Positions 2,348 through 16,915 of a stretch of 16,915 bases of DNA are shown piece after piece. Below the pieces are notes generated by a model. That model was not told the origin of the DNA. It saw only the letters and a program-made list of their open reading frames with translations, and made no database searches. The DNA is from a virus. Lineage: Duplodnaviria > Heunggongvirae > Uroviricota > Caudoviricetes. The position numbers were made by a program, and so were the translations under genes. The stretch lies in IMG/VR virus record IMGVR_UViG_2545824719_000009; one strand, given 5' to 3'. Positions within the stretch are counted from its first letter, which is position 1. Each line of letters begins with the position of its first letter.

Positions 2348-4449
2348 TGCTGAATCAGGAAACCGCAAAGGCAGCACGAACCGATTCAGGTTATATCCTT
2401 CGCGCACCGAGACGAATGCGGGTTGCTGATGCCGTTGCTCAGTATATGCGGGTGCCCATGGGGGCAGGGAACTCAGTCCCGTGGGATCCGCTGGTGGCAC
2501 CGTATGTTATTGAGCCGATGAACTGCCTGGCCTCGCGTGAATACGACGCAGTGATATTTGTTGGCCCGGCACGAACCGGCAAGACTATCGGCCTGATTGA
2601 CGGCTGGGTGATTTACAACGTGATTTGCGATCCTGCTGATATGCTGATCATACAGATGACGGAGGAAAAAGCCCGCGAACACTCCAAAAAACGACTCGCC
2701 AGAACGTTTCGCGTCAGCCCGGAAGTGGTCAGTCGCCTGAGTCCGAACAAAAATGACAACAACGTTTATGACAGAACATTCCTTGCTGGTAACTACCTGA
2801 AAATCGGCTGGCCGTCAGTCAATATCATGTCCTCATCAGATTATAAATGCGTCGCGCTGACGGATTATGACCGTTTTCCGGAAGATATTGATGGCGAGGG
2901 GGATGCCTTCTCTCTTGCCTCAAAACGTACCACCACATTTATGTCCAGTGGTATGACGCTGGTGGAGAGTTCCCCCGGCAGGGATGTGAAGGATGTGAAA
3001 TGGCGACGGACTTCACCGCATGAGGCTCCACCAACCACGGGGATACTGTCGCTCTATAACCGTGGCGATCGCCGTCGCTGGTACTGGCCCTGTCCACACT
3101 GTGGTGAGTATTTTCAGCCCTGCGGCGATGTGGTTGCTGGTTTCCGTGATATTGCCGATCCCGTGCTGGCAAGTGAGGCGGCTTATATTCAGTGTCCTTC
3201 CTGTTCAGGACGGATTATGCCTGAACAAAAACGTGAGCTGAACGGACGTGGGGTCTGGTTGCGGGATGGTGAATCCATCAATGCGGATGGCAGTCGTTAT
3301 GGTGATCCCCGACGCTCACGTATTGCGTCATTCTGGATGGAGGGTCCGGCAGCTGCTTACCAGACACTCTCGCAACTCGTTTACAAACTGCTTACTGCAG
3401 AACAGGAATACGAGACAACCGGAAGTGAAGAAACACTCAAGACGGTTATCAATACCGACTGGGGATTACCTTATCTTCCCCGTGCCAGCATGGAGCAACG
3501 AAAAAGTGAACTGCTTGAGCAGCGGGCAGAGCCAGTTCCTTCCCGCAGTGTGCCGGATGGCGTTAATTTCCTGGTGGCGACAGTGGATGTGCAGGCGGGA
3601 CGTCATCGCCGTTTTGTGGTTCAGGTAACGGGCTATGGCAGCCGTGGCGAACGCTGGATTATTGATCGTTACAACATCACGCAGTCATTGCGCGGTGACA
3701 GCGACGGGGAGAGCCAGCGAATTGATCCGGCCAGCTATCCGGAAGACTGGGATGTCCTGCTGACGGATGTTTTTCATAAAAGCTGGCCGCTGGCCTCCGA
3801 TCCTTCTCAACAAATGCGACTGATGGCAATGGCGGTGGACTCCGGCGGTGAAGACGGGGTCACTGATAATGCCTATAAATTCTGGCGTCGTTGCCGTCGT
3901 GATGGCCTTGGTAAACGTATTTACCTGTTTAAGGGCGACAGCATCCGGCGCGCAAAACTGATCACCCGTACATTCCCTGATAACACCGGACGAACGGGCC
4001 GACGGGCGCAGGCCGCAGGTGATGTGCCGCTCTGGCTTCTTCAGACGGATGCCCTGAAAGACCGGGTGAATAACGCGTTATGGCGTGACTCGCCAGGTCC
4101 CGGCTATGTGCATTTCCCTGACTGGCTGGGGAGCTGGTTTTACGACGAACTGACGTATGAAGAGCGGAGTAGTGACGGGAAATGGAGTAAGCCGGGTCGC
4201 GGTGCCAACGAAGCTTTTGACCTGATGGTGTATGCCGAGGCTCTGGTCATTCTGCATGGATACGAAAAGATCCGCTGGCCGGATGCACCGGAGTGGGCGA
4301 GCCGGGAAACCTGGCTGGAGTGTGTCCCGGACAGTACCGAACCGTCACCCTCACCGGAACCGGTATCCACGCCTGTTAAAAAACAAAAACGGAAGAAAAC
4401 AGTAACTGACGATGTTAACCCCTGGCTGACTTCCGGAGGATGGTTATGA
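2347..4449 (+). CDS. A: Terminase large subunit, lambda gpA family
   Basis: 700 aa, with GGGAGGAG upstream. Contains the ATPase P-loop-like GPARTGKT and the motif WYWPCPHCGEYFQ, which parallels lambda gpA ACPHCGEEQYLKFG. Size and position match gpA. Confidence 0.9.
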   Translation: MLNQETAKAARTDSGYILRAPRRMRVADAVAQYMRVPMGAGNSVPWDPLVAPYVIEPMNCLASREYDAVIFVGPARTGKTIGLIDGWVIYNVICDPADMLIIQMTEEKAREHSKKRLARTFRVSPEVVSRLSPNKNDNNVYDRTFLAGNYLKIGWPSVNIMSSSDYKCVALTDYDRFPEDIDGEGDAFSLASKRTTTFMSSGMTLVESSPGRDVKDVKWRRTSPHEAPPTTGILSLYNRGDRRRWYWPCPHCGEYFQPCGDVVAGFRDIADPVLASEAAYIQCPSCSGRIMPEQKRELNGRGVWLRDGESINADGSRYGDPRRSRIASFWMEGPAAAYQTLSQLVYKLLTAEQEYETTGSEETLKTVINTDWGLPYLPRASMEQRKSELLEQRAEPVPSRSVPDGVNFLVATVDVQAGRHRRFVVQVTGYGSRGERWIIDRYNITQSLRGDSDGESQRIDPASYPEDWDVLLTDVFHKSWPLASDPSQQMRLMAMAVDSGGEDGVTDNAYKFWRRCRRDGLGKRIYLFKGDSIRRAKLITRTFPDNTGRTGRRAQAAGDVPLWLLQTDALKDRVNNALWRDSPGPGYVHFPDWLGSWFYDELTYEERSSDGKWSKPGRGANEAFDLMVYAEALVILHGYEKIRWPDAPEWASRETWLECVPDSTEPSPSPEPVSTPVKKQKRKKTVTDDVNPWLTSGGWL

Positions 4450-4658
4450 ACCAGAATGATATCGAAGCCATGATTCAGCGTTATACGGAAGCTGAAATGG
4501 CGGTGCTGGACGGAAAATCCGTCACTTTTAATGGTCAGCAGATGACCATGGAAAACTTATCTGAGATCCGGCAGGGGCGGCAGGAGTGGGAGCGCCGCCT
4601 TGCGGCTCTGATTACACGACGACGGGGGCATCCCGGGTACCGGCTGGCGAGGTTCTGA
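4446..4658 (+). CDS. W: Head-tail connector / head completion protein gpW
   Basis: 70 aa: MNQNDIEAMIQRYTEAEMAVLDGKSVTFNGQQMTMENLSEIRQGRQEWERRLAALITRRRG. Size, the position between terminase and portal, and the C-terminal RRRG motif match lambda gpW. GGAGGA lies 5 nt upstream of ATG 4446; an in-frame ATG at 4440 is the alternative start. Confidence 0.8.
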   Translation: MNQNDIEAMIQRYTEAEMAVLDGKSVTFNGQQMTMENLSEIRQGRQEWERRLAALITRRRGHPGYRLARF

Positions 4659-6166
4659 TGGCAATTCTTGATGATGTGATTGGCGTTTTTTCACCAGGAT
4701 GGAAAGCGGCAAGGCTGCGTTCCCGTGCGGTGATCCAGGCTTATGAGGCCGTAAAAACGACGCGGACACACAAAGCCCGACGGGAGAACAGAACTGCCGA
4801 CCAGTTAAGCCAGTACGGGGCCGTGTCGTTACGTGAGCAGGCCCGTTACCTTGATAACAACCACGATCTGGTTATTGGTGTATTTGACAAGCTGGAAGAA
4901 CGGGTGGTGGGGAAAAACGGGATTATTGTCGAGCCACATCCGGTATTACGCAATGGGGCCATTGCCCGTGATCTGGCAGCGGAGATTCGCACCCGATGGA
5001 GTGAATGGTCTGTCAGTCCGGAGGTCACCGGGCAGTTTACCCGTCCGATGCTGGAACGTCTGATGCTGCGTACCTGGCTGCGCGATGGTGAGGTGTTTGC
5101 CCAGATGGTTTCCGGGCGCATAAACAGCCTGACGCCTTCTGCCGGTGTTCATTTCTGGCTGGAGGCGCTCGAGCCGGACTTTATTCCCATGACCAGTGAT
5201 GAGAGCAACAGGCTGAATCAGGGCGTGTTTGTTGATGACTGGGGGCGTCCCGAAAAATATCTGGTGTATAAAAGCCGTCCCGTATCCGGACGGCAGATGG
5301 AAACCAAAGAAGTGGATGCAGAGCGAATGCTGCATCTTAAATTTGTTCGCCGTCTGCACCAGATGCGCGGGACGTCTTTGTTGTCCGGTGTGCTGATCCG
5401 CCTCAGTGCCCTGAAAGATTATGAAGATTATGAGCTGACTGCAGCAAGGATCGCCGCTGCTCTGGGGATGTACATCCGCAAAGGCGACGGGCAGAGCTAT
5501 GAACCGGATGGTAATGGCAGCAAGGATAAGGAACGCGAGCTTACCATTCAGCCAGGCATTATTTACGATGATCTGAAACCCGGCGAAGAAATCGGAATGG
5601 TGAAGTCGGATCGCCCCAATCCTAACCTTGAAACTTTTCGTAATGGTCAGTTGCGTGCCGTGGCGGCGGGCAGTCGTCTGAGTTTTTCCAGTACAGCGCG
5701 CAACTATAACGGCACTTACAGCGCCCAGCGTCAGGAGCTGGTTGAATCCACTGATGGCTACCTGATCCTGCAGGACTGGTTTATTGGTGCCGTCACCCGC
5801 CCGATGTATCGTGCATGGCTGAAACAGGCTGTGGCATCCGGTGTTATCAGGCTACCCCGCGATCTTGACCGTTCTTCACTGTATACCGCGGTGTATTCCG
5901 GACCAGTGATGCCGTGGATTGACCCTGTTAAGGAGGCTGAGGCCTGGAAAATCCAGATTCGTGGTGGAGCGGCGACAGAATCAGACTGGGTACGTGCTGG
6001 TGGTCGTAATCCGGATGATGTCAAACGTCGGCGCAAGGCCGAAATTGATGAAAACCGCAAGCTGGATCTGGTATTTGATACCGATCCGGCCAGTGATAAA
6101 GGAGGCAGTAGTGCCGCAACGAAACGACAGGAGCCGCAGCACACCGACGACCAGTCCGAAGATTAA
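4658..6166 (+). CDS. B: Portal protein, lambda gpB family
   Basis: ATG at 4658 overlaps the gpW stop (TGATG). The ORF track's earlier start at 4586 would run back through the W gene. About 500 aa with a lambda gpB-like architecture, in the position immediately after W. Confidence 0.85.
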   Translation: MAILDDVIGVFSPGWKAARLRSRAVIQAYEAVKTTRTHKARRENRTADQLSQYGAVSLREQARYLDNNHDLVIGVFDKLEERVVGKNGIIVEPHPVLRNGAIARDLAAEIRTRWSEWSVSPEVTGQFTRPMLERLMLRTWLRDGEVFAQMVSGRINSLTPSAGVHFWLEALEPDFIPMTSDESNRLNQGVFVDDWGRPEKYLVYKSRPVSGRQMETKEVDAERMLHLKFVRRLHQMRGTSLLSGVLIRLSALKDYEDYELTAARIAAALGMYIRKGDGQSYEPDGNGSKDKERELTIQPGIIYDDLKPGEEIGMVKSDRPNPNLETFRNGQLRAVAAGSRLSFSSTARNYNGTYSAQRQELVESTDGYLILQDWFIGAVTRPMYRAWLKQAVASGVIRLPRDLDRSSLYTAVYSGPVMPWIDPVKEAEAWKIQIRGGAATESDWVRAGGRNPDDVKRRRKAEIDENRKLDLVFDTDPASDKGGSSAATKRQEPQHTDDQSED

Positions 6167-8138
6167 TTCCTGGTTCAGGATGCAGGCTGGTCACCAGAGT
6201 GACGCGGATATTTATATTTATGACGAGATTGGTTTCTGGGGTGTTACAGCGAAGCAGTTTATCAGTGATCTGAATGCACTGGGCGATATCACCCACATTA
6301 ATCTCCATATTAATTCACCGGGTGGCGATGTCTTTGAAGGCATCGCCATTTTTAATGCGCTGAAAACACATGGTGCGTCCATTACCGTTTATGTCGACGG
6401 TGTGGCGGCGTCAATGGCGTCGGTCATTGCGATGGTGGGAAACCCGGTCATTATGCCGGAAAACACCTTCATGATGATTCATAAACCATTTGGCTTTACG
6501 GGCGGTGATGCGGAGGACATGCGCACCTATGCCGACCTGCTCGATAAGGTTGAGGCGGTTCTGTTACCCGCTTATGCACAGAAAACCGGGAAAACCACCG
6601 ATGAAATTGCTGCCATGCTGGCGGATGAGACCTGGATGTCCGGTGCCGAATGTCTGGCACAGGGATTTGCTGATCAGGTGACGCCAGCCGTTAAGGCAAT
6701 GGCATGTATTCAGTCAAAACGTACAGAGGAATTTAAAAAGATGCCGGAATCCATTCGAAACATGATTACTCCGCCACGCAACAGTGCTCCACGCGTACAG
6801 GATGATGAACCTGCAGCCTCCCGGACGCCAGTGCAGGCAGCAGCACCCGTGGTGGATGAAAACAGTATCCGTGCGCAGGTACTGGCAGAGCAAAAAGCGC
6901 GTGTAAACGGTATTAATGATCTGTTTGCCATGTTTGGCGGGCGTTATCAGACGCTGCAGGCTCAGTGTCTTGCCGATCCTGAATGTTCGCTGGAGCAGGC
7001 CCGCGAAAAGCTGTTGAACGAGATGGGGCGCGAGTCCACGCCATCCAATAAAAATACCCCGGCTCATATTTATGCCGGTAACGGTAATTTTGTGGGGGAC
7101 GGGATCCGCCAGGCGCTGATGGCGCGTGCCGGATTTGAAAAAACCGAACGTGATAATGTCTACAACGGGATGACCCTGCGTGAATATGCCCGTATGTCAC
7201 TGACTGAACGGGGTATTGGGGTTTCCAGTTATAACCCGATGCAGATGGTCGGTGCGGCGTTCACACACAGTACGTCTGACTTCGGTAATATTCTGCTGGA
7301 TGTTGCGAACAAAGCCATTCTGCAGGGCTGGGAAGATGCCCCTGAAACCTATGAACAGTGGACGCGGAAAGGTCAGTTGTCTGATTTTAAAATTGCCCAT
7401 CGTGTGGGTATGGGGGGCTTCAGTGCTCTGCGTCAGGTGCGTGAAGGGGCGGAATATAAATACGTCACCACCGGAGATAAACAGGCCACTATTGCACTGG
7501 CGACCTATGGCGAGCTGTTCAGTATCACCCGTCAGGCCATTATCAATGATGATCTGAATATGCTGACCGATGTCCCGATGAAGCTGGGCCGTGCGGCGAA
7601 ATCCACTATTGCCGATCTGGTTTATGCCATTCTGACGTCTAACCCGAAAATCTCCACAGATAATGTAAGTCTGTTCGATAAAGCGAAACATGCAAACGTA
7701 CTGGAGAGCGCTGCAATGGACGTGGCATCGCTGGATAAAGCCCGCCAGTTGATGCGCGTTCAGAAAGAGGGGGAGCGTCATCTGAATATTCGTCCTGCGT
7801 TCGTACTGGTACCGACGGCGATGGAGTCTGTTGCTAACCAGGTCATTCGCTCCTCAAGTGTCAAGGGGGCTGACATTAACGCCGGTATTATTAACCCGGT
7901 GAAAGATTTTGCGACCGTTATTGCAGAGCCTCGTCTTGATGATAACAGCCTGACCACCTTCTACCTGGCTGCGTCAAAAGGCTCCGATACGATTGAAGTG
8001 GCTTATCTCAACGGTGTGGATACGCCATATATTGATCAGATGGAGGGCTTCAGTGTGGATGGCGTGACAACGAAAGTGCGTATTGACGCCGGTGTCGCGC
8101 CAGTTGATCACCGCGGTCTGGTGAAATGTACGGCGTAA
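6111..8138 (+). CDS. Prohead maturation protease (ClpP/S14-like) fused to scaffold-like linker and major capsid protein
   Basis: One continuous ORF. The N-terminal domain ADIYIYDEIGFWG...INSPGGDVFEGIAIFNAL...GVAASMASVIA...MMIHKP is ClpP-like with candidate Ser/His catalytic residues. A Pro/Ala/Gln-rich linker follows, then a ~330-aa domain called major capsid protein from its size and position. Start is uncertain: GTG 6111 has AAAGGAGG 5 nt upstream and overlaps the portal 3-prime end; ATG 6180 is the alternative. Confidence 0.7.
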   Translation: MPQRNDRSRSTPTTSPKINSWFRMQAGHQSDADIYIYDEIGFWGVTAKQFISDLNALGDITHINLHINSPGGDVFEGIAIFNALKTHGASITVYVDGVAASMASVIAMVGNPVIMPENTFMMIHKPFGFTGGDAEDMRTYADLLDKVEAVLLPAYAQKTGKTTDEIAAMLADETWMSGAECLAQGFADQVTPAVKAMACIQSKRTEEFKKMPESIRNMITPPRNSAPRVQDDEPAASRTPVQAAAPVVDENSIRAQVLAEQKARVNGINDLFAMFGGRYQTLQAQCLADPECSLEQAREKLLNEMGRESTPSNKNTPAHIYAGNGNFVGDGIRQALMARAGFEKTERDNVYNGMTLREYARMSLTERGIGVSSYNPMQMVGAAFTHSTSDFGNILLDVANKAILQGWEDAPETYEQWTRKGQLSDFKIAHRVGMGGFSALRQVREGAEYKYVTTGDKQATIALATYGELFSITRQAIINDDLNMLTDVPMKLGRAAKSTIADLVYAILTSNPKISTDNVSLFDKAKHANVLESAAMDVASLDKARQLMRVQKEGERHLNIRPAFVLVPTAMESVANQVIRSSSVKGADINAGIINPVKDFATVIAEPRLDDNSLTTFYLAASKGSDTIEVAYLNGVDTPYIDQMEGFSVDGVTTKVRIDAGVAPVDHRGLVKCTA

Positions 8139-8162
8139 ACGTCGCAGACAACAACTCTGATG

Positions 8163-8181
8163 GCCCGTAAGGGCTTTTTTT
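8163..8181. terminator. Weak terminator-like hairpin plus T7 run after the capsid gene
   Basis: GCCC-GTAA-GGGC followed by TTTTTTT, 25 nt after the capsid stop. A second hairpin CAGCCCC-TGAAC-GGGGCTG sits at 8193-8211 with no T-run. Confidence 0.3.
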
Positions 8182-8224
8182 GTACCTGAAATCAGCCCCT
8201 GAACGGGGCTGTGCGGAGACAGTT

Positions 8225-8548
8225 ATGGCAAAGAATTTTGTAGAAGAAGGAAAAACGGTGGCGATTGTTGCCAGTGCAGCCATCAGCAGCGGAGATCTGG
8301 TGCAGGTGGGTGATGTTTTTGCGGTGGCGCTGACCGATATTCCACAGGGTGAAACAGGCGACGGCATGACCGAAGGTGTGTTTATGCTGCCTAAGCTGAA
8401 AACGGATGACATGAAAACGGGTAAGAAGGTTTATCTGAAGTCCGGAAAAGTTCAGCTGACTAACAGCGGCTCTGATCCGCTGGTCGGGGTTGTCTGGGCA
8501 GATGCCGGAACCAGTGCAGAAGAAGTGCCGGTAAAACTCAATGTCTGA
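8225..8548 (+). CDS. Small head protein, probable head decoration / cement protein (DUF2190-like)
   Basis: 107 aa beginning MAKNFVEEGKTVAIVA..., with GGAG 7 nt upstream. It sits immediately after the major capsid gene. The family assignment is from pattern memory and position only. Confidence 0.45.
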   Translation: MAKNFVEEGKTVAIVASAAISSGDLVQVGDVFAVALTDIPQGETGDGMTEGVFMLPKLKTDDMKTGKKVYLKSGKVQLTNSGSDPLVGVVWADAGTSAEEVPVKLNV

Positions 8549-8816
8549 TCCCTTTTCCCGGCTGGCAGCGCGTATGGATGCGATCACGGTCAGAAAGATG
8601 GGAAAGACAGCCTCGATTAATGATGCCGATATGACTGTGATCCCGGGAGAAACACTGGCAGAGCTGAATGCTCTGTCCGGACCTGCGGTATCTCTGGTGG
8701 TGTTTTCTTCGGGATACCGCCCACGGCGCGGGGATCGCGTTGTTTATGACGGACAACAATGGACGGTCACACGGCATGAACGCTTTAACGGTAAGCCAAT
8801 GATCTTTATTGAGTAA
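8541..8816 (+). CDS. Head-tail joining protein, gpFII-like
   Basis: 91 aa. MSDPFSRLAARMDAITVRKMG...RPRRGDRVVYDGQQWTV parallels lambda gpFII (FDNLFDAAIARADETIRGYMG...RRGDTLTIGEENFWV). The start overlaps the stop of the preceding gene. Confidence 0.5.
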   Translation: MSDPFSRLAARMDAITVRKMGKTASINDADMTVIPGETLAELNALSGPAVSLVVFSSGYRPRRGDRVVYDGQQWTVTRHERFNGKPMIFIE

Positions 8817-8827
8817 AGAGGTGTGGG

Positions 8828-9414
8828 ATGAAGGGGCTTGAGAATGCCATCCGTAATCTGAACAGCCTTGATACCCGTATGGTGCCACAGGCCAGCGCAT
8901 GGGCGATAAACCGTGTGGCACAGAAAGCGGTCTCGGTTGCCACCCGGCAGGTTGCCGGGAATACCGTTGCGGGAGATAACCAGGTGAAAGGGATCCCCCT
9001 GAAACTGGTACGTCAGCGTGTCCGGGTGTTTAAAGCCAGTCCGTCAGGAAAAATGACGGCCAGGATCCGCGTTAACCGGGGCAATCTGCCCACCATCAAG
9101 CTGAACACAACACGGCGGCGTGCTGGTGAAGGATTGAGAGTGGGAAAATACTTTTTCCGGGGGGCATTTATTCAGCAACTGGCGGGCAAATAGCATGTTC
9201 TGAGGCGTCTTCCAGAAACGCGTATGGTCGCTGGCATGTGATGCGGCGTATTGATGGCAAAAATCGTTACCCCATTGATGTAGTGAAAATCCCGCTGTCC
9301 GGACCGCTGACACAAGCATTTGAAGATGCCCGCGACCGCATTATTGCTGCGGAAATGCCGAAACAGCTGGGGTATGCACTGAAACAACAACTGAGGTTAT
9401 GGCTGACCCGATGA
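8828..9414 (+). pseudogene. Z: Minor tail protein gpZ homolog, interrupted by a frame break
   Basis: Frame A (8828-9193) reads MKGLENAIRNLNSL...RVNRGNLPTIKL...GAFIQQLAGK then stop, matching the lambda gpZ N-terminal two-thirds. The gpZ C-terminus GRWHVMRRIDGKNRYPIDVVKIP...LGYALKQQLR continues in a different frame from about 9226 to the stop at 9412-9414. Lambda has only KN between FIQQL and GRWHV, whereas here 44 nt intervene. Confidence 0.6.
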
Positions 9415-9812
9415 ACCGACATACACAAATCCGCCAGGCCGTACTAGCACGCCTTCGGAAACAGTGTGGAGACAGCGCCACGTTTTTTGACGGGCTTCCG
9501 GCATTTGTTGATGCGCAGGAACTGCCTGCCGTGGCAGTGTGGCTGAGTGATGCTCAGTACACCGGAAAAATGACGGATGAAGATGACTGGCAGGCTGTTC
9601 TGCATATTGCTGTCTTCATCCGGGCACAGGCACCGGATTCAGAGCTGGATATGTGGATGGAGAGCACCATTTTCCCGGCTCTGAATGATATACCGGCACT
9701 TTCCGGACTCATCGACACCCTGATCCCTCTCGGTTTTAACTATCAACGTGATAATGAGATGGCCACCTGGGCGATGGCGGAAATCACGTACCAGATCACG
9801 TACACGAATTAA
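9399..9812 (+). CDS. U: Tail terminator protein gpU
   Basis: ATFFDGLPAFVDAQELPAVAVWLSDAQYTG...PDSELDMWMESTIFPALNDIPALSGLIDTL aligns closely with recalled lambda gpU (ATFFDGRPAVFDEADFPAVAVYLTGAEYTG...PDSELDAWMESRIYPVMSDIPALSDLI). Start is either ATG 9399 (GAGG 4 nt upstream) or ATG 9411, which fits the lambda N-terminus better. Confidence 0.85.
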   Translation: MADPMNRHTQIRQAVLARLRKQCGDSATFFDGLPAFVDAQELPAVAVWLSDAQYTGKMTDEDDWQAVLHIAVFIRAQAPDSELDMWMESTIFPALNDIPALSGLIDTLIPLGFNYQRDNEMATWAMAEITYQITYTN

Positions 9813-9823
9813 AGGAGGTGGCA

Positions 9824-10567
9824 ATGACCACACCAAATCCACTGGCAAAAACGAAAGGTGCGGGAACGACGTTCTGGATGTACACCGGCAAGGGCGATGC
9901 GTTTGCGAACCCTTTATCGGACACTGACTGGCTGCGTCTTGCGATGGTGAAGGATCTGCAACCTGGCGAAATGACCGCTGATGCAGAAGATGACACTTAT
10001 CTCGATGATGAAGATGCAGACTGGAAAACGACAACCCAGGGGCAGAAATCCGTCGGTGATACTTCGGCGACGCTGGCCTGGCGTCCGGGTGACAGCGGGC
10101 AGAAAAAACTGGTTCAGTTGTTCGACTCCGGTGAAGTCTGCGCGTTTCGTATCAAATATCCCAACGGTACTGTTGATGTTTTCCGTGGCTGGCTGAGTTC
10201 ACTGGGTAAAACCATTGCCTCAAAAGACGTGATGACCCGCACAGTGAAAATCAGCGGTGTGGGGCGTCCGCATCTGGCAGAGGAAGGCACTGAAACAGTG
10301 AGCGTTACCGGGCTGACGGTGGCACCGGCATCTGCCAGTGTAAAAGTGGGAGCAACCACCACGCTGACCTTTACAGTAAAACCTGACGGAGCCAGTGACA
10401 AAGCGATCAGTGTGCATTCGACAGATCCACAGACTGCCACGGTGACCCTGAACGGGCTTGTGGCCACGGTGAAAGGCGTGAAGCAGGGCAGTGTCAGCAT
10501 TGTGGGCATGACTTCTGACGGCGATTTTGTGGCCGTGGCTGCGGTGGCTGTCAGCGCCGCAGGTTAA
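9824..10567 (+). CDS. V: Major tail protein gpV, with C-terminal Ig-like domain
   Basis: AGGAGG lies 5 nt upstream of ATG 9824. KGAGTTFWMYTGKGDAFANPLSDTDW...YLDDEDADW...NGTVDVFRGWLSS is highly similar to recalled lambda gpV. The C-terminal ~90 aa (VSVTGLTVAPASASVKVGATTTLTFTV...) is Ig-like, as in lambda. Confidence 0.9.
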   Translation: MTTPNPLAKTKGAGTTFWMYTGKGDAFANPLSDTDWLRLAMVKDLQPGEMTADAEDDTYLDDEDADWKTTTQGQKSVGDTSATLAWRPGDSGQKKLVQLFDSGEVCAFRIKYPNGTVDVFRGWLSSLGKTIASKDVMTRTVKISGVGRPHLAEEGTETVSVTGLTVAPASASVKVGATTTLTFTVKPDGASDKAISVHSTDPQTATVTLNGLVATVKGVKQGSVSIVGMTSDGDFVAVAAVAVSAAG

Positions 10568-10587
10568 CAGGACGATACTCATCATTT

Positions 10588-10611
10588 GCCCCGGTTATCC
10601 GGGGCTTTTTT
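10588..10611 (+). terminator. Rho-independent terminator between V and G
   Basis: GCCCCGG-TTAT-CCGGGGC is a 7-bp GC-rich stem followed by TTTTTT, 20 nt after the V stop. Confidence 0.55.
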
Positions 10612-10624
10612 GCAGGTGGAGAAC

Positions 10625-11014
10625 ATGATGTTTCTGAAACAGGGCTCGTTTAATTATGAAAAGCAGTCCGTGGTGCTCAGTGAGCTGTCCGGGCTGCAGA
10701 GAATTGAATATCTGGCGTTTGTTCAGCAGCGAACGGCAAAGTTTGATGCCGGGGAGGGAGAACTGCCGGAGGCTGAACGACAGATTGCTTTTCTGCGGAT
10801 GGGGATGGATATCAATGCCTGGCTGGTTTCCCGCTCACTGTGGAATGCGGAACAGTCTCAGGATGTTGAGACGCTTTGCGCATCCGTTATTACAACATGG
10901 TCGTATGATGCCCTGGGTGCGGGGGCGGAGATGGTTCTGTCGCTGAGCGGTATGGGGGCCATTGATAATGCCGGGGATGATGAGCATGAGGCGCTGACGC
11001 CGGAAAAGTCCTGA
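10625..11014 (+). CDS. G: Tail assembly chaperone gpG
   Basis: MMFLKQGSFNYEKQSVVLSELSGLQRIEYLAF parallels lambda gpG MFLKTESFEHNGVTVTLSELSALQRIEHLAL. GGTGGAG lies 4 nt upstream. Confidence 0.85.
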   Translation: MMFLKQGSFNYEKQSVVLSELSGLQRIEYLAFVQQRTAKFDAGEGELPEAERQIAFLRMGMDINAWLVSRSLWNAEQSQDVETLCASVITTWSYDALGAGAEMVLSLSGMGAIDNAGDDEHEALTPEKS

Positions 11015-11352
11015 CGCGGGAAATGCAGTTTGTCATGCGGCTTGCCCGGGAGTTCCGGCGGGCAGACTGGCGGCGGATGCTGTCGGAAATGTCGGCCACT
11101 GAGCTTGGTGAGTGGGGCGATTATTTCCGGATGCAGAGCTTCAGTGATGTGTGGATGGATGCGCAGTTTGCCTCGCTGAAGGCATTGATCGTGAGAATGG
11201 TGTCCGGCAGCAGTGATGCTGCGGTGGCTGATTTCAGCCTTTTACCGGAAGAGAACGGGATACCGGAGCGAACGGACGAAGAACTGATGCATCTTGGAGA
11301 AGGTATTTCCGGAGGTGTGCGTTATGGACCAGATAGCCAACCTGGTCATTGA
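10625..11352 (+). CDS. Tail assembly chaperone gpGT, made by a -1 translational frameshift near the 3-prime end of G
   Basis: The -1 frame is open from 10990 through 11352 and overlaps the last codons of G. The only slippery-like heptamer in the overlap is GGAAAAG at 11002-11008. The T-frame ORF has no ribosome-binding site of its own, and the G/T geometry is as in lambda. Confidence 0.65.
11002..11008 (+). promoter_or_regulatory. Candidate -1 frameshift slippery heptamer (G GAA AAG)
   Basis: Located 4 nt before the G stop codon and inside the window where the -1 frame is open. Compare lambda G GGA AAG. Confidence 0.45.
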
Positions 11353-14300
11353 TTTGGGGATTGATGCGGCAGAGTTTAAAAATGAAATTCCCCGTATCAA
11401 AAACCTTCTGAATGGTGCAGCCAGCGATGCAGAACGGTCTTCTGCCCGTATGCAGCGTTTTATGGAGCGTCAGACTCAGGCCGCCCGGCAGACAACGCAG
11501 GCAGCTTCTTCGGCTGCAACAGCCGCCTCCGTCCATGCGCAGACGGTGGAGAAGAACGCACAGGCTCATGAACGCATGGCCCGCGAGGTGGAGAAAACCC
11601 GCCAGCGCATGGAGGCGCTGAGCCAGAAAATGCGCGATGAACAGGCGCAGGCCATGGCTCTGGCAGAGGCTCAGGATAAAGCGGCTGCTGCGTTTTATCG
11701 TCAGATTGACAGTGTGAAACAGGCCAGTGCGGGGCTGCAGGAATTACAGCGTATTCAGCAGCAGATCCGACAGGCCAGAAACAGTGGCGGGATTGGTCAG
11801 CAGGATTATCTGGCGCTGATTTCTGAGGTTACGGCGAAAACCCGTGTTCTTACACAGGCTGAGGAAGAGGCTACCCGACAGAAAGTGGCGTTTATCCGTC
11901 AGCTTAAAGAGCAGGCAACCCGCCAGAATCTTTCTTCTTCTGAGTTGCTTCGTGCTAAGGCTGCCCAGCTGGGGGTAAGCAGTGCTGCAGAAGTGTATAT
12001 CCGCAAAATGGAGCAGGCAGGAAAAGCAACGCATTCGCTGGGTCTGAAAAGTGCAGCGGCCCGTCAGGAGATAGGCGTTCTGATAGGTGAACTGGCCCGC
12101 GGCAATTTAGGTGCGCTGAGGGGATCCGGAATAACGCTGGCTAACCGTGCCGGGTGGATAGACACATTGATGTCACCGAAAGGCATGATGCTTGGCGGGG
12201 TTATTGGCGGTATTGCCGCGGCTGTCTATGGTCTGGGTAAAGCCTGGTATGACGGTCAGAAGGAGGGGGAAGAATTTAACCGCCAGTTGTCGCTGACGGG
12301 GCATTATGCCGGAGTCACTGCCGGGCAGCTGTGGACGCTCAGTCGTGCTATTTCCGGGAATGGTATCACGCAACATGCTGCAGCCGGTGCGCTGGCTCAG
12401 GTGGTGGGGAGTGGTGCATTTCGTGGAAACGATATCGGTATGGTGGCGAGAGCTGCCGCACAGATGGAGCGATCGGTTGGCCAGTCGGTCAGCGATACCA
12501 TAAGTCAGTTTAAGCGGCTGAAGGATGATCCTGTAAATGCCGCGAAGGCTCTGGACAATGAGCTGCATTTTCTTACTGCCACTCAGCTTGAGCAGATACG
12601 CGTCCTTGGGGAACAGGGGCGGTCCAGTGATGCGGCACGGATAGCCATGTCTGCACTGGCAGAGGAAACCGGTCGGCGTACTGCGGATATTGATAATAAC
12701 CTCAATGCGCTTGGCAGTACGCTGAAGTATCTGTCTGATTTGTGGAGTCGTTTCTGGGATGCGGCCATGAATATTGGTCGTGAAGACTCGCTGGATGAAC
12801 AGATTTCCGCTTTACAGGAGAAAGTGTCGCGGGCGAAAAGACTCCCCTGGACGGCATCATCTTCTCAGGTTGAATACGATCAGCAGCGTCTTAACGATCT
12901 TCAGGAGAAAAAACGCCAGAAGGATTTGCAGGATGCAAAAGAGCAGGCAGAGCGGAATTATCAGGAGCAACAGAAACGCCGTAATGCTGAAAATGCTGCA
13001 CTGAACCGGATGAATGAAACGGAAGCAGCACGACATCAGCGTGAAATTGCGCGTATTAATGCCATGCAGTACGCCGATCAGGCTGTCAGGGATGCGGCGA
13101 TACAACGTGAAAATGAACGTTACGAGAAAGCCCTGGCATCCGGTAAGAAAAAAACACGCGAAACCCGTAATGATGAGGCCACCCGGTTATTGCTGCAGTA
13201 CAGTCAGCAACAGGCACAGGTGGAAGGACAGATTGCTGCTGCCAGACAGTCAGCAGGCATTGCCACGGAAAGGATGACAGAAGCGCATAAACAGCTTCTG
13301 GCTCTGCAGCAGCGCATCAGCGACCTGGACGGGAAAAAACTGACGGCAGATGAAAAGAGTGTGCTGGCCCGTAAAGATGAACTGATTCAGGCACTGACGC
13401 TGCTGGATGTAAAACAGCAGGAGCTTCAGAAACAGACGGCACTCAACGAGCTGAAGAAAAAAACAATTCAGCTGACCAGTCAACTGGCTGAAGAAGAGCG
13501 CGCTCAGCGCCAGCAACATGACCTGGATATCGCCACGGTGGGTATGGGTGATCAGCAGCGACAGCGATATCAGGTACAACTGAGTCTTCGCCAGAAATAC
13601 CAGCAACAGCTGGAGCAGTTGAGGCGGGATAGTGAGCAGAAAGGGACATATAACACGGATGACTACAGAAAGGCCGAGCAGGCGCTGACGGAGAGCCTGA
13701 ACCGACAACTGAATGAGAATCGCCGTTATTGGCAACAGCTTGAAATTGCTCAGGGTGACTGGAAAAACGGAGTCCTGCGTGCACTCCAGAATGTCACTGA
13801 GAAAGCGGATAACACGGCAGAAACAGCAGAACAGGTGTTCTCGTCAGCCTTCAGTAGCATGAGTGACTGGCTGGCGACATTCTGTACTACAGGCAAACTC
13901 AATTTCAAATCCTTCACCTCTTCTGTGCTGTCAGATATGGCGAAAATCCTGGCGCAGGCAACCATGATGAAATCGATAAAAGGGATTGGCAGTGTACTGG
14001 GATTTGATCTCAGCAGCCTTTCCCTGAATGCCAATGGGGGGATTTATCAGTCTGCTGATTTGAGTCGTTACAGTGGCACGGTGGTTAACCGTCCGACGTT
14101 TTTTGCTTTTGCAAAAGGCGCGGGTGTGATGGGGGAAGCTGGACCTGAAGCCATTCTGCCATTGCGTCGTGGTGCTGACGGTAAGCTGGGGGTTGTGGCG
14201 GATATTGGGGGGTCAGGTATGGCGATGTTTTCCCCGCAGTACAACATCGAGATCAATAACGATGGCACGAACGGGCAGATAGGTCCGGCTGCCCTGAAGG

Positions 14301-14389
14301 TGGTTTATGACCTTGGGAAAAAAGCGGCAGCGGACTTTATGCAACAGCAGGCCCGTGATGGTGGTCGGTTAAGTGGAGCATATCGGTAA
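11324..14389 (+). CDS. H: Tail tape measure protein gpH
   Basis: 1021 aa, with GGAGG 8 nt upstream of the ATG. The N-terminus MDQIANLVIDLGIDAAEF matches lambda H MAEPVGDLVVDLSLDAARF, and the C-terminus INNDGTNGQIGPAALKVVYD...RDGG matches lambda H NNDGTNGQIGPAALKAVYD...RDGG. The central part is long and Gln/Ala/Arg-rich, consistent with coiled coil. Confidence 0.9.
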   Translation: MDQIANLVIDLGIDAAEFKNEIPRIKNLLNGAASDAERSSARMQRFMERQTQAARQTTQAASSAATAASVHAQTVEKNAQAHERMAREVEKTRQRMEALSQKMRDEQAQAMALAEAQDKAAAAFYRQIDSVKQASAGLQELQRIQQQIRQARNSGGIGQQDYLALISEVTAKTRVLTQAEEEATRQKVAFIRQLKEQATRQNLSSSELLRAKAAQLGVSSAAEVYIRKMEQAGKATHSLGLKSAAARQEIGVLIGELARGNLGALRGSGITLANRAGWIDTLMSPKGMMLGGVIGGIAAAVYGLGKAWYDGQKEGEEFNRQLSLTGHYAGVTAGQLWTLSRAISGNGITQHAAAGALAQVVGSGAFRGNDIGMVARAAAQMERSVGQSVSDTISQFKRLKDDPVNAAKALDNELHFLTATQLEQIRVLGEQGRSSDAARIAMSALAEETGRRTADIDNNLNALGSTLKYLSDLWSRFWDAAMNIGREDSLDEQISALQEKVSRAKRLPWTASSSQVEYDQQRLNDLQEKKRQKDLQDAKEQAERNYQEQQKRRNAENAALNRMNETEAARHQREIARINAMQYADQAVRDAAIQRENERYEKALASGKKKTRETRNDEATRLLLQYSQQQAQVEGQIAAARQSAGIATERMTEAHKQLLALQQRISDLDGKKLTADEKSVLARKDELIQALTLLDVKQQELQKQTALNELKKKTIQLTSQLAEEERAQRQQHDLDIATVGMGDQQRQRYQVQLSLRQKYQQQLEQLRRDSEQKGTYNTDDYRKAEQALTESLNRQLNENRRYWQQLEIAQGDWKNGVLRALQNVTEKADNTAETAEQVFSSAFSSMSDWLATFCTTGKLNFKSFTSSVLSDMAKILAQATMMKSIKGIGSVLGFDLSSLSLNANGGIYQSADLSRYSGTVVNRPTFFAFAKGAGVMGEAGPEAILPLRRGADGKLGVVADIGGSGMAMFSPQYNIEINNDGTNGQIGPAALKVVYDLGKKAAADFMQQQARDGGRLSGAYR

Positions 14390-14718
14390 TGGAGACGTTT
14401 CACTGGAAAGTGCGCCCGGATATGAATGTGGTATCAGAGCCGAAAGTGGTGACAGTGAAGCTGGGCGATGGTTATGAACAGCGTCGTGCGGCGGGACTGA
14501 ATAACCAGTTGTCGACTTACAGCGTGACGATACGTGTTCGTAAATGTGACCACCCATCTTTAAAAGCCTTTCTGGAACGGCACGGTGGCGTCCGTGCATT
14601 TCAGTGGACGCCACCTTATGACTGGAAACCGATCAGGGTGGTTTGTCGTAAATGGTCGGCAAGCGTGGGGGCGCTGTGGGTAACCATAACGGCAGATTTT
14701 GAACAGGTCGTGGCATAG
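14389..14718 (+). CDS. M: Minor tail protein gpM
   Basis: 109 aa. METFHWKVRPDMNVVSEPKVV...GDGYEQRRAAGLN...WTPPYDWKPIRV...ADFEQVVA parallels lambda gpM, which is the same length. The start overlaps the H stop (TAATG). Confidence 0.9.
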   Translation: METFHWKVRPDMNVVSEPKVVTVKLGDGYEQRRAAGLNNQLSTYSVTIRVRKCDHPSLKAFLERHGGVRAFQWTPPYDWKPIRVVCRKWSASVGALWVTITADFEQVVA

Positions 14719-14727
14719 GAGGCTCTG

Positions 14728-15426
14728 ATGCAGGATATTCCACAGGAAACACATCATGAGACGACACGCCTTACTCAGTCAGCCCAGGTGGTGCTCTGGG
14801 AAATCGATCTGACAGAGGTCGGTGGTGAACGTTATTTTTTCTGTAATGAGCAGAACGAAAAAGGTGAGCCGGTCACCTGGCAGGGGCGGCAGTATCAGGC
14901 ATACCCCATTCAGGGGACGGGATTTGAACTGAACGGTAAGGGCAGTGCTGCCCGTCCGACACTGACGGTCTCTAACCTGCACGGCATGGTCACCGGGATG
15001 GCGGAAGACCTGCAGAGTCTGGTCGGCGGAACGGTGGTCAGGCGTAAGGTTTACGCCCGTTTTCTGGATGCGGTGAACTTCGTCAACGGAAACAGCGACG
15101 CCGATCCGGAGCAGGAGGTGATCAGCCGCTGGCGCATCGAGCAGTGTAGCGAACTGAGTGCGGTCAGTGCCTCCTTTGTGCTCTCCACACCGACGGAAAC
15201 GGATGGTGCTGTTTTTCCGGGGCGCATCATGCTGGCCAACACCTGCACCTGGACCTATCGCGGTGATGAGTGCGGTTATCACGGTCCGGCTGTCGCTGAT
15301 GAATATGACCAGCCGACGTCCGATATCACGAAGGATAAATGCAGCAAATGCCTGAGTGGCTGTAAGTTTCGCAATAACGTCGGCAACTTTGGCGGCTTCC
15401 TTTCCATTAACAAACTTTCGCAGTAA
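14728..15426 (+). CDS. L: Minor tail protein gpL
   Basis: 232 aa, essentially co-linear and near-identical to recalled lambda gpL (VVLWEIDLTEVGGERYFFCNEQNEKGEPVTWQGRQYQ...KCSKCLSGCKFRNNVGNFGGFLSINKLSQ). GGAGG lies upstream. Confidence 0.95.
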   Translation: MQDIPQETHHETTRLTQSAQVVLWEIDLTEVGGERYFFCNEQNEKGEPVTWQGRQYQAYPIQGTGFELNGKGSAARPTLTVSNLHGMVTGMAEDLQSLVGGTVVRRKVYARFLDAVNFVNGNSDADPEQEVISRWRIEQCSELSAVSASFVLSTPTETDGAVFPGRIMLANTCTWTYRGDECGYHGPAVADEYDQPTSDITKDKCSKCLSGCKFRNNVGNFGGFLSINKLSQ

Positions 15427-15430
15427 TCCC

Positions 15431-16174
15431 ATGACACAGACAGAATCAGCGATTCTGGCGCACGCCCGGCGATGTGCGCCAGCGGAATCGTGCGGCTTCG
15501 TGGTGAGAACGCCGGAGGGGGAAAGATATTTTCCCTGCGTGAATATCTCCGGTGAGCCGGAGGCGTATTTCCGGATGTCGCCGGAGGACTGGCTGCAGGC
15601 AGAGATGCAGGGTGAGATTGTGGCACTGGTCCACAGTCATCCCGGTGGTCTGCCCTGGCTGAGTGAGGCTGACCGGCGGCTGCAGGTGCAGAGTGATTTG
15701 CCGTGGTGGCTGGTCTGCCGGGGGGCGATTCACAAGTTCCGCTGTGTGCCGCATCTCACCGGGCGGCGCTTTGAGCACGGGGTGACGGACTGTTACACGC
15801 TGTTCCGGGATGCTTATCATCTGGCGGGGATTGAGATGCCGGATTTTCATCGCGGGGATGACTGGTGGCGTAACGGTCAGAATCTCTATCTGGATAATCT
15901 GGAGGCCACAGGGCTGTATCAGGTGGCGTTGTCATCAGCACAACCGGGCGATGTGCTGCTGTGCTGTTTTGGTTCATCGGTGCCGAATCATGCCGCCATT
16001 TACTGCGGCGACGGTGAGCTGCTGCACCATATTCCTGAACAACTGAGTAAACGAGAGAGGTATACCGACAAATGGCAGCGACGCACACACTCCCTCTGGC
16101 GTCACCGGGCATGGCACGCATCTGCCTTTACGGGGATTTACAACGATTTGGCCGCCGCATCGACCTTCGAGTGA
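15431..16174 (+). CDS. K: Tail tip assembly protein gpK (JAB/MPN metallopeptidase-like plus NlpC/P60-like domains)
   Basis: MTQTESAILAHARRCAPAESCGFVV...ALVHSHPGGLPWLSEAD carries the JAMM-type motif H-x-H-x7-S-x2-D with an upstream Glu, and GVTDCYTLF...NHAAIY is NlpC/P60-like. The 3-prime 103 nt overlap gene I in another frame. An in-frame ATG at 15575 corresponds to the shorter lambda K annotation as I recall it. Confidence 0.85.
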   Translation: MTQTESAILAHARRCAPAESCGFVVRTPEGERYFPCVNISGEPEAYFRMSPEDWLQAEMQGEIVALVHSHPGGLPWLSEADRRLQVQSDLPWWLVCRGAIHKFRCVPHLTGRRFEHGVTDCYTLFRDAYHLAGIEMPDFHRGDDWWRNGQNLYLDNLEATGLYQVALSSAQPGDVLLCCFGSSVPNHAAIYCGDGELLHHIPEQLSKRERYTDKWQRRTHSLWRHRAWHASAFTGIYNDLAAASTFE

Positions 16175-16719
16175 AAACGGGGTCTGAAGCCATCCGGGCG
16201 CTGGCCATGCAGATCCCGGCGTTTCGTCAGAAACTGAGCGACGGCTGGTACCAGGTACGCATTGCCGGGCGTGATGCAGGTGAAACCGAATTGTCTGCCC
16301 GTCTTAATGAGCCGCTGGCAAATGGTGCCGTGATCCACATCGTGCCGCGTCTGGCGGGAGCTAAAAGTGGCGGTGTGTTTCAGGTGGTGCTGGGGGCGGC
16401 GCTGATTGCGGTGGCATGGTGGAACCCTGTGGGCTGGCTGGGTGCCGCGGCTGTATCGGGCATGTATGCGGCAGGGGCCAGTATGATCCTGGGCGGAGTG
16501 GCGCAGATGCTGGCACCGAAAGCCAGGACGCCCACGGCAGCAAGTACAGATAACGGCAAACAGAACACCTATTTCTCCTCACTGGATAACATGGTTGCCC
16601 AGGGCAATGTTCTGCCGGTTCTGTACGGTGAAATGCGCGTGGGGTCACGCGTGGTTTCTCAGGAAATCAGCACGGCAGACGAAGGGGATGGTGGGCAGGT
16701 TGTGGTGATTGGTCGCTGA
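16072..16719 (+). CDS. I: Tail tip assembly protein gpI
   Basis: The N-terminus MAATHTLPLASPGMARICLYGDLQRFGRRIDLRVKTG and C-terminus NGKQNTYFSSLDNMVAQGNVLPVLYGEMRVGSRVVSQEISTADEGDGGQVVVIGR match recalled lambda gpI. The central hydrophobic segment differs from lambda. Confidence 0.9.
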   Translation: MAATHTLPLASPGMARICLYGDLQRFGRRIDLRVKTGSEAIRALAMQIPAFRQKLSDGWYQVRIAGRDAGETELSARLNEPLANGAVIHIVPRLAGAKSGGVFQVVLGAALIAVAWWNPVGWLGAAAVSGMYAAGASMILGGVAQMLAPKARTPTAASTDNGKQNTYFSSLDNMVAQGNVLPVLYGEMRVGSRVVSQEISTADEGDGGQVVVIGR

Positions 16720-16737
16720 TACAAAATGTTTTATGTG

Positions 16738-16757
16738 AAACCGCCTCCGGGCGGTTT
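16738..16757. terminator. Stem-loop (possible terminator or attenuator) between I and J
   Basis: AAACCGCC-TCCG-GGCGGTTT is a perfect 8-bp stem with a 4-nt loop, followed by the T-rich TTATCGTTT. Confidence 0.4.
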
Positions 16758-16779
16758 TATCGTTTATGGAGCATGACGA

Positions 16780-16915
16780 ATGGGTAAAGGCAGCAGTAAG
16801 GGGCATACCCCGCGCGAAGCAAAGGACAACCTGAAGTCCACGCAGTTGCTGAGTGTGATCGATGCCATCAGCGAAGGGCCGGTTGAAGGTCCGGTGGATG
16901 GATTAAAAAGCGTGC
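16780..16915 (+). CDS. J: Tail tip / host-specificity protein gpJ, N-terminal 45 codons; 3-prime end lies outside the window
   Basis: MGKGSSKGHTPREAKDNLKSTQLLSVIDAISEGPVEGPVDGLKSV is near-identical to the recalled lambda gpJ N-terminus. GGAG lies 9 nt upstream. Confidence 0.9.
   Translation, partial: MGKGSSKGHTPREAKDNLKSTQLLSVIDAISEGPVEGPVDGLKSV

Follow-up and report, generated by a model that had tools for sequence, protein, structure and literature searches.

The window, the whole stretch of DNA analysed here, comprises all 16,915 bp of contig APZZ01000035.1 from the draft genome of E. coli p0305293.14 (GCA_000357485.2). It carries the late region (lysis, head and tail genes) of an mEp460/cdtI-like lambdoid prophage that is 97–98% identical to known phages, and modules of this kind match a median of 4 places per complete E. 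coli genome. A single Z ORF of ~180–200 aa belongs in the interval from the head-tail joining gene to U; here that interval holds a homologue of lambda gpZ (Pfam Minor_tail_Z) that is split at 9191–9226 and occupies two reading frames, frame A being closed by a TAG at 9191–9193. The features at this locus are as follows.

8828–9193, + strand: Z frame A ORF, 121 aa, ending ...GAFIQQLAGK, phase 1
GRW from 9226, end 9414, + strand: Z frame B continuation, ...YGRWHVMRRIDGKNRYPIDVVKIP..., phase 0, a −1 shift
9411–9812, + strand: U (tail terminator), 133 aa, its exact product found on three contigs among ~15 billion proteins

The region from the lysis genes to the small terminase gene (586–1324) also included a 205-aa pRha/ORF11CD3-family gene at 728–1345 that is absent from mEp460, PhiR47_1, SA186 and A21005. 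This gene is very common elsewhere (8,416 index blocks), in several lambdoid backgrounds, and its protein is too widespread to single out further sister isolates.

Anatomy of the broken Z gene

The Minor_tail_Z profile (PF06763) matched the N-terminal fragment over profile positions 1–127 (E 1.4e-34) and the frame-B piece over positions 127–190 (E 2.3e-23), such that the two fragments jointly spanned the family profile over its full length (1–190), the same span that was matched by the intact Z of a sister contig (E 3.7e-76). In the −1 frame, the conserved frame-B continuation, GRWHVMRRIDGKNRYPIDVVKIP..., picks up at 9226 and ends at 9414. The distance from GCG (Ala, ending at 9184) to GGT (Gly, 9226) is 41 nt, whereas the intact alleles most similar to this gene have 3 nt there (AAT, Asn), and since the 38 extra nucleotides are no multiple of three, the reading frame is shifted. 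The initial annotation had described two gpZ halves in different frames, with frame A ending in GAFIQQLAGK at TAG 9191–9193 and the conserved sequence resuming at about 9226, and this description was borne out by the ORF phases (1 and 0) and the Pfam matches. It was also right that lambda has only KN as a spacer (FIQQL-KN-GRWHVM), that the spacing in the window is not divisible by three, and that the other structural genes are whole, the lengths of the remaining genes matching those of phage mEp460 and of prophages in complete genomes. A difference of 1–2 nt had been expected at the break; alignment to intact alleles instead gave an in-frame TAG together with the 38 additional nucleotides.

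Common natural Z alleles were of two types, here called M and T, which are separated by two indels. The M type has 192 aa, is found in phage mEp460 and reads QQLANGRWHVMRRIDGKNRY, whereas the T type has 196 aa, is found in phage Tritos, phage PhiR47_1 and strain 120899, and reads QQLANGRWHVLRRLPEARFATGHDHQGRPRKNRLPVEVV. The T type contains GCGAATGGCCGCTGGCATGTTCTGAGG...GCGCGTTTTGCAACAGGGCATGACC and the M type GCGAATGGTCGCTGGCATGTGATGCGG. T-type Z has a 14-aa insert after GRWHVLRR, and the break in the window is located at the site where T and M alleles differ by this 42-nt indel.

Across window positions 9080–9290 and their homologues in mEp460/cdtI-like prophages, the length classes of Z were set by two indel-variable stretches, namely a 10-aa difference around NTTRRRAGEG vs GTARVRLARRGGKLQYRGSV and a 14–16 aa insertion after GRWHV(L/M)RR, and recombinants between the classes occur (182, 192, 196, 198 and 206 aa). 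The idea that the T-type insert is a diverged copy of the FIQQLANGRWH unit, derived from an ancient tandem duplication, was dropped because T-type alleles of 198 aa (P0064, P0066) show a plain 14–16 aa insertion after HV(L/M)RR. One full-length Z of 197 aa from outside the window (WP_074536178.1, P0014) contains at this position a tandem duplication of 15 aa that is a T/M hybrid (QQLANGR, then YLVRDASIQKLANGRWHVMRR), which could be a real product of unequal crossover or another assembly chimera.

A mosaic alignment against two references, the T allele from strain 120899 and the undamaged M allele from the sister isolate p0305293.7, divided the Z gene of the window into three segments.

8828–9184, + strand: Z 5' part (frame A), T-type, corresponding to T 1–357 (alignments, mosaic alignment with 2 mismatches, PF06763 1–127)
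9185–9223, + strand: anomalous 39-nt segment corresponding to T 361–399, a remnant of the T-specific insert (HVLRRLPE.R) (alignments, mosaic alignment)
9224–9414, + strand: Z 3' part (frame B), M-type, corresponding to M 389–579 (mosaic alignment, PF06763 127–190)

The 5' part differed from the Z of strain 120899 (WP_001398416.1 type, 196 aa) solely at 8848 and 8854, where the window has M-haplotype bases, and the 3' part differed from the intact Z of p0305293.7 solely at 9282 and 9289, where it has T-haplotype bases. Between them, the 39-nt segment had lost 3 nt (AAT) and acquired six private substitutions (9188, 9189, 9190, 9192, 9214 and 9218), every one of them to A, and the substitution at 9192 converted TGG to the TAG at 9191–9193. 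The M-type sequence restarts just after QQLA, such that NGRWHV is encoded twice with a net gain of 38 nt, and there is no homology at the T/M join. The lesion is therefore a premature in-frame TAG combined with a 38-nt chimeric partial duplication. Over 3300–16915, the segment at 9186–9223 was the sole indel private to the window relative to five relatives.

A column-wise blend of T-type sequence with a shifted M- or T-type register was considered as a source of the six changes to A, and no single register was convincing; the best registers accounted for 5 of the 6 changes but were merely A-rich. The six changes fitted no single misalignment register that was tried.

Search for the lesion in other sequence collections

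No sequence among 5,426 complete E. coli genomes covered ≥80% of 9140–9270, and nothing nearer than 89.7% to 9140–9223 was found in the same genomes; for 9080–9330 the best full-length match was 85%. The junction strings CTGGCGGGCAAATAGCATG and GAAACGCGTATGGTCGC had no exact match in viral, metagenome or GTDB contig collections. The 121-aa Z product occurred on one contig only (GenBank ENE16726.1). We found no split Z among homologues, as the listed complete members of 794 homologous protein clusters were single ORFs of ~170–206 aa; intact homologues sharing the break, which the initial annotation had named as a possible finding, did not appear among them.

These results bear on whether the split gene is functional, producing either two polypeptides (121 aa and ~57 aa) or a single protein through a programmed −1 frameshift, which we consider exceedingly improbable. 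A canonical G_GGA_AAA heptamer, the only slippery one, is present in frame A at 9142, frame B is open from 9130, which gives a 64-nt overlap of the two frames, and both fragments retain strong Pfam matches. However, the same heptamer is present in intact T-type alleles that need no shift, and a shift at 9142 would exchange the conserved KYFFRGAFIQQLA block (FIQQLA) for unrelated residues. There was also no slippery site near the TAG, the candidate frame-B starts at 9238 and 9241 had no Shine-Dalgarno-like sequence, and the same break was seen in no homologue. For an artefactual sequence, moreover, a functional split would be moot. Programmed frameshifting at 9142, which the slippery-heptamer test did not support, and re-initiation at 9238 or 9241 were accordingly rejected as candidates. 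The heptamer at 9142–9148 occurred in all T-type Z alleles with no sign of use.

Source strain and sister contigs

The isolate comes from a study that covered more than one ETEC colony from each patient and in which genomes were sequenced with Illumina reads at >200x coverage and assembled with Celera Assembler (PMC4462620). The main text of that study names only P0299917 and P0299438 as non-clonal subjects, and P0305293 is not named there (PMC4462620). Considered with the U allele described below, this list suggests that the p0305293 colonies are clonal.

The exact U protein of the window was carried by three contigs, i.e. the window itself (p0305293.14), AQCC01000098.1 (p0305293.7) and AQBX01000005.1, the last presumably from a further colony of the same patient, and this unique allele ties the window to the other two. 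In both of these, the Z gene beside the unique U was M-type and intact (192 aa), and it encodes a natural allele that is widespread. A third sister contig, AQBU01000050.1 from p0305293.11, had a 193-aa T/M chimera with two non-homologous joins (given as M/T/M or T/M/T/M), and its T stretch (T 342–409) matched the T type perfectly, without damage, over exactly the segment garbled in the window. Both allele types are thus represented in the sequence data of the strain, whose T allele does not itself carry the lesions seen in the window. The junction and the six substitutions were found in 0 of the 3 sister assemblies; across these presumably clonal isolates the lesion was therefore not reproduced, with Z being intact in two contigs and differently chimeric in the third.

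The U allele itself (9411–9812) has 120899-like bases at 9446, 9459 and 9536, yet it differs from the U of strain 120899. It could represent either a genuine allele particular to the strain or a hybrid that the consensus reproducibly generates.

It is highly improbable that the contig followed, at this point, a third and degenerate prophage with a really damaged Z. The number of matching modules in E. coli genomes leaves room for such an element, and the six private substitutions are not accounted for by the T or M proxies. Traces of it would nevertheless be expected in the sister assemblies, none of which had the junction or any of the six substitutions, and the 5,426 complete genomes contained no allele closer than 89.7%.

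Haplotype mosaics and probable consensus errors

Pairwise differences among the four contigs were 0.7–3% with 9–69 gap openings, and 207 biallelic sites displayed all 7 possible sharing patterns, interleaved along the contig. Diagnostic sites (n = 175) were defined by comparing a 120899-type prophage with three concordant M-type references, the 120899 prophage standing in for the T haplotype of p0305293 itself. At these sites the four contigs were four distinct T/M mosaics with 15–29 switches; each of them mixed T and M, i.e. both repeat haplotypes were present within single contigs of the strain, as collapsed paralogues would show. The pattern in the window outside Z was as follows.

3450–14800, no strand assigned: rest of contig, T/M patchwork with 68 T and 107 M states at 175 sites and 23 switches

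In the tape-measure gene H, T/M blocks of 34–69 nt alternated over 13745–13891 (in a region to 14068), and the sister contigs were patterned otherwise there. The tape-measure protein of the window (1021 aa) is itself probably a consensus chimera, as its exact sequence was unique in the protein collection. Prophage L026, of like architecture, was rejected as the true haplotype as it was only 98% identical. In strain 120899 (NZ_CP025916.1, 155581–158196), the large terminase gene was interrupted by an IS66-family element (ISCro1-like), such that the best T-type proxy is itself a defective prophage in a closed, complete genome.

Short deletions in the three sister contigs fell on T/M polymorphic columns in 16/29, 8/9 and 22/47 cases compared to a background of 2.4% (p = 7e-19, 1e-12 and 3e-23, respectively), and at the 5' end of V five SNP sites were each read as a missing base. 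The set of broken genes accordingly differed from assembly to assembly.

p0305293.7: capsid, V, M, K
AQBX01000005.1: V, H
p0305293.11: portal, U, V, H, L
Window: Z only

Replicate assemblies of isolates that appear to be clonal thus disagreed with one another, and their errors were concentrated at polymorphic sites. The frame breaks of the sister contigs (capsid fusion, V, U, H, M, L, K and portal) arise from single-base deletions at haplotype SNP columns, and truncated or chimeric deposits from these contigs, such as ENG52089.1, ENH54054.1 and ENH54058.1, are likely artefacts. In the window there were no deletions of 1–2 nt and all genes besides Z were intact, which indicates a better consensus than that of the sister contigs.

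Prophages of E. coli commonly recombine with one another. A real pseudogene private to colony p0305293.14, produced by illegitimate recombination or gene conversion between co-resident prophages, would draw on this established process, and the natural Z alleles are themselves mosaic here, with the 197-aa P0014 allele having its T/M hybrid duplication at the same place. The sequence was moreover deposited at >200x coverage, on a contig that is otherwise without the frame breaks and 1–2 nt deletions seen in its sisters. We nonetheless consider such a pseudogene unlikely. Recombination would not be expected to leave a 3-nt deletion and six private substitutions packed into 35 nt at a join that lacks homology, and the junction was found nowhere else. 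Furthermore, Z was differently aberrant in p0305293.11 and intact in two contigs with the same unique U, and the haplotype patches of 34–69 nt were shorter than the assumed read length of ~100 nt and patterned unlike those of the sisters. Should the pseudogene be real, the prophage would form Z-less tails of low infectivity, and the pseudogene would capture a moment of prophage decay within the host, in one colony of the patient's ETEC population.

Origin of the frame break

The frame break in Z is in all likelihood an assembly artefact that arose when two near-identical prophages were merged by short-read assembly. ETEC strain p0305293 would carry at least two mEp460/cdtI-type lambdoid prophages that are ~97–98% identical over the head-tail module, one with a T-type Z (196 aa) and the other with an M-type Z (192 aa). 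Celera Assembler, which uses an overlap-consensus approach, may have merged Illumina reads of both into one contig, with a consensus that would hop between haplotypes and, at SNPs, would pick one base or, as in the sister assemblies, drop it. At the 42-nt indel in Z, misalignment of the mixed pile-up would have produced a chimera that is T-type through most of the insert, continues with garbled bases that include the false TAG, and then becomes M-type 38 nt out of register. This explanation is favoured by the intact Z beside the same unique U in two contigs, the differing chimera in p0305293.11, the absence of the junction from all other collections searched and the collapsed-consensus signature in the sister contigs, and we infer that the merging process which left this signature also made the window's own Z junction. 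Two observations speak against it: outside Z the window is a clean contig, and the six changes to A fit none of the misalignment registers tried. The initial annotation had left the choice between a recent inactivating indel and an assembly error open; for the reasons given, the evidence favours the latter.

An intact M-type Z, found whole in two sister contigs, is most likely present in the strain, probably together with an intact T-type Z that is visible in pieces only. Nothing here therefore argues against tail building by the prophages of this strain, and the earlier suggestion that this prophage might be unable to make infectious particles is unsupported, as the break reads as an assembly error. 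Two database entries, ENE16726.1 (the 121-aa Z fragment) and ENG52089.1 (a 193-aa chimeric Z), are probably artefactual. The biological importance of the Z break is small. As a general matter, prophage decay should not be deduced from a gene that is frame-broken on a short draft contig, and caution should be greatest where a genome contains several near-identical lambdoid prophages and the break is located at the site of an indel between alleles.

Comparison with known systems

The Z gene of the window belongs to the lambda gpZ family and is ordinary within it. Its break is very probably no real biological feature, and the collapse of near-identical prophages in short-read drafts is well known. 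In its family (PF06763) and gene order (Gifsy-2-like head-tail protein, Z, U, V, G, T, H) the locus resembles lambda gpZ and its relatives in mEp460/cdtI-like phages. Compared to intact gpZ genes, its 5' part resembles the 196-aa 120899 allele and its 3' part the 192-aa mEp460-like allele, and unlike other PF06763 members the ORF is cut by a TAG and by a partial duplication of 38 nt that breaks the frame. A G_GGA_AAA heptamer at 9142 with an open −1 frame downstream recalls the G/GT frameshift of lambda (G_GGA_AAG); unlike G/GT, however, the heptamer is found in intact alleles, a shift would destroy conserved residues, and the break is not conserved. A further likeness is to collapsed-repeat errors in short-read drafts of genomes with several lambdoid prophages, in which two haplotypes share one contig and switch over sub-read distances, clonal isolates yield differing mosaics, sister assemblies drop bases at polymorphic columns, and contigs stop at the borders of shared modules. 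Compared to its sister assemblies, the window is distinguished by having no single-base deletions and by a sole structural error at the one large inter-haplotype indel.
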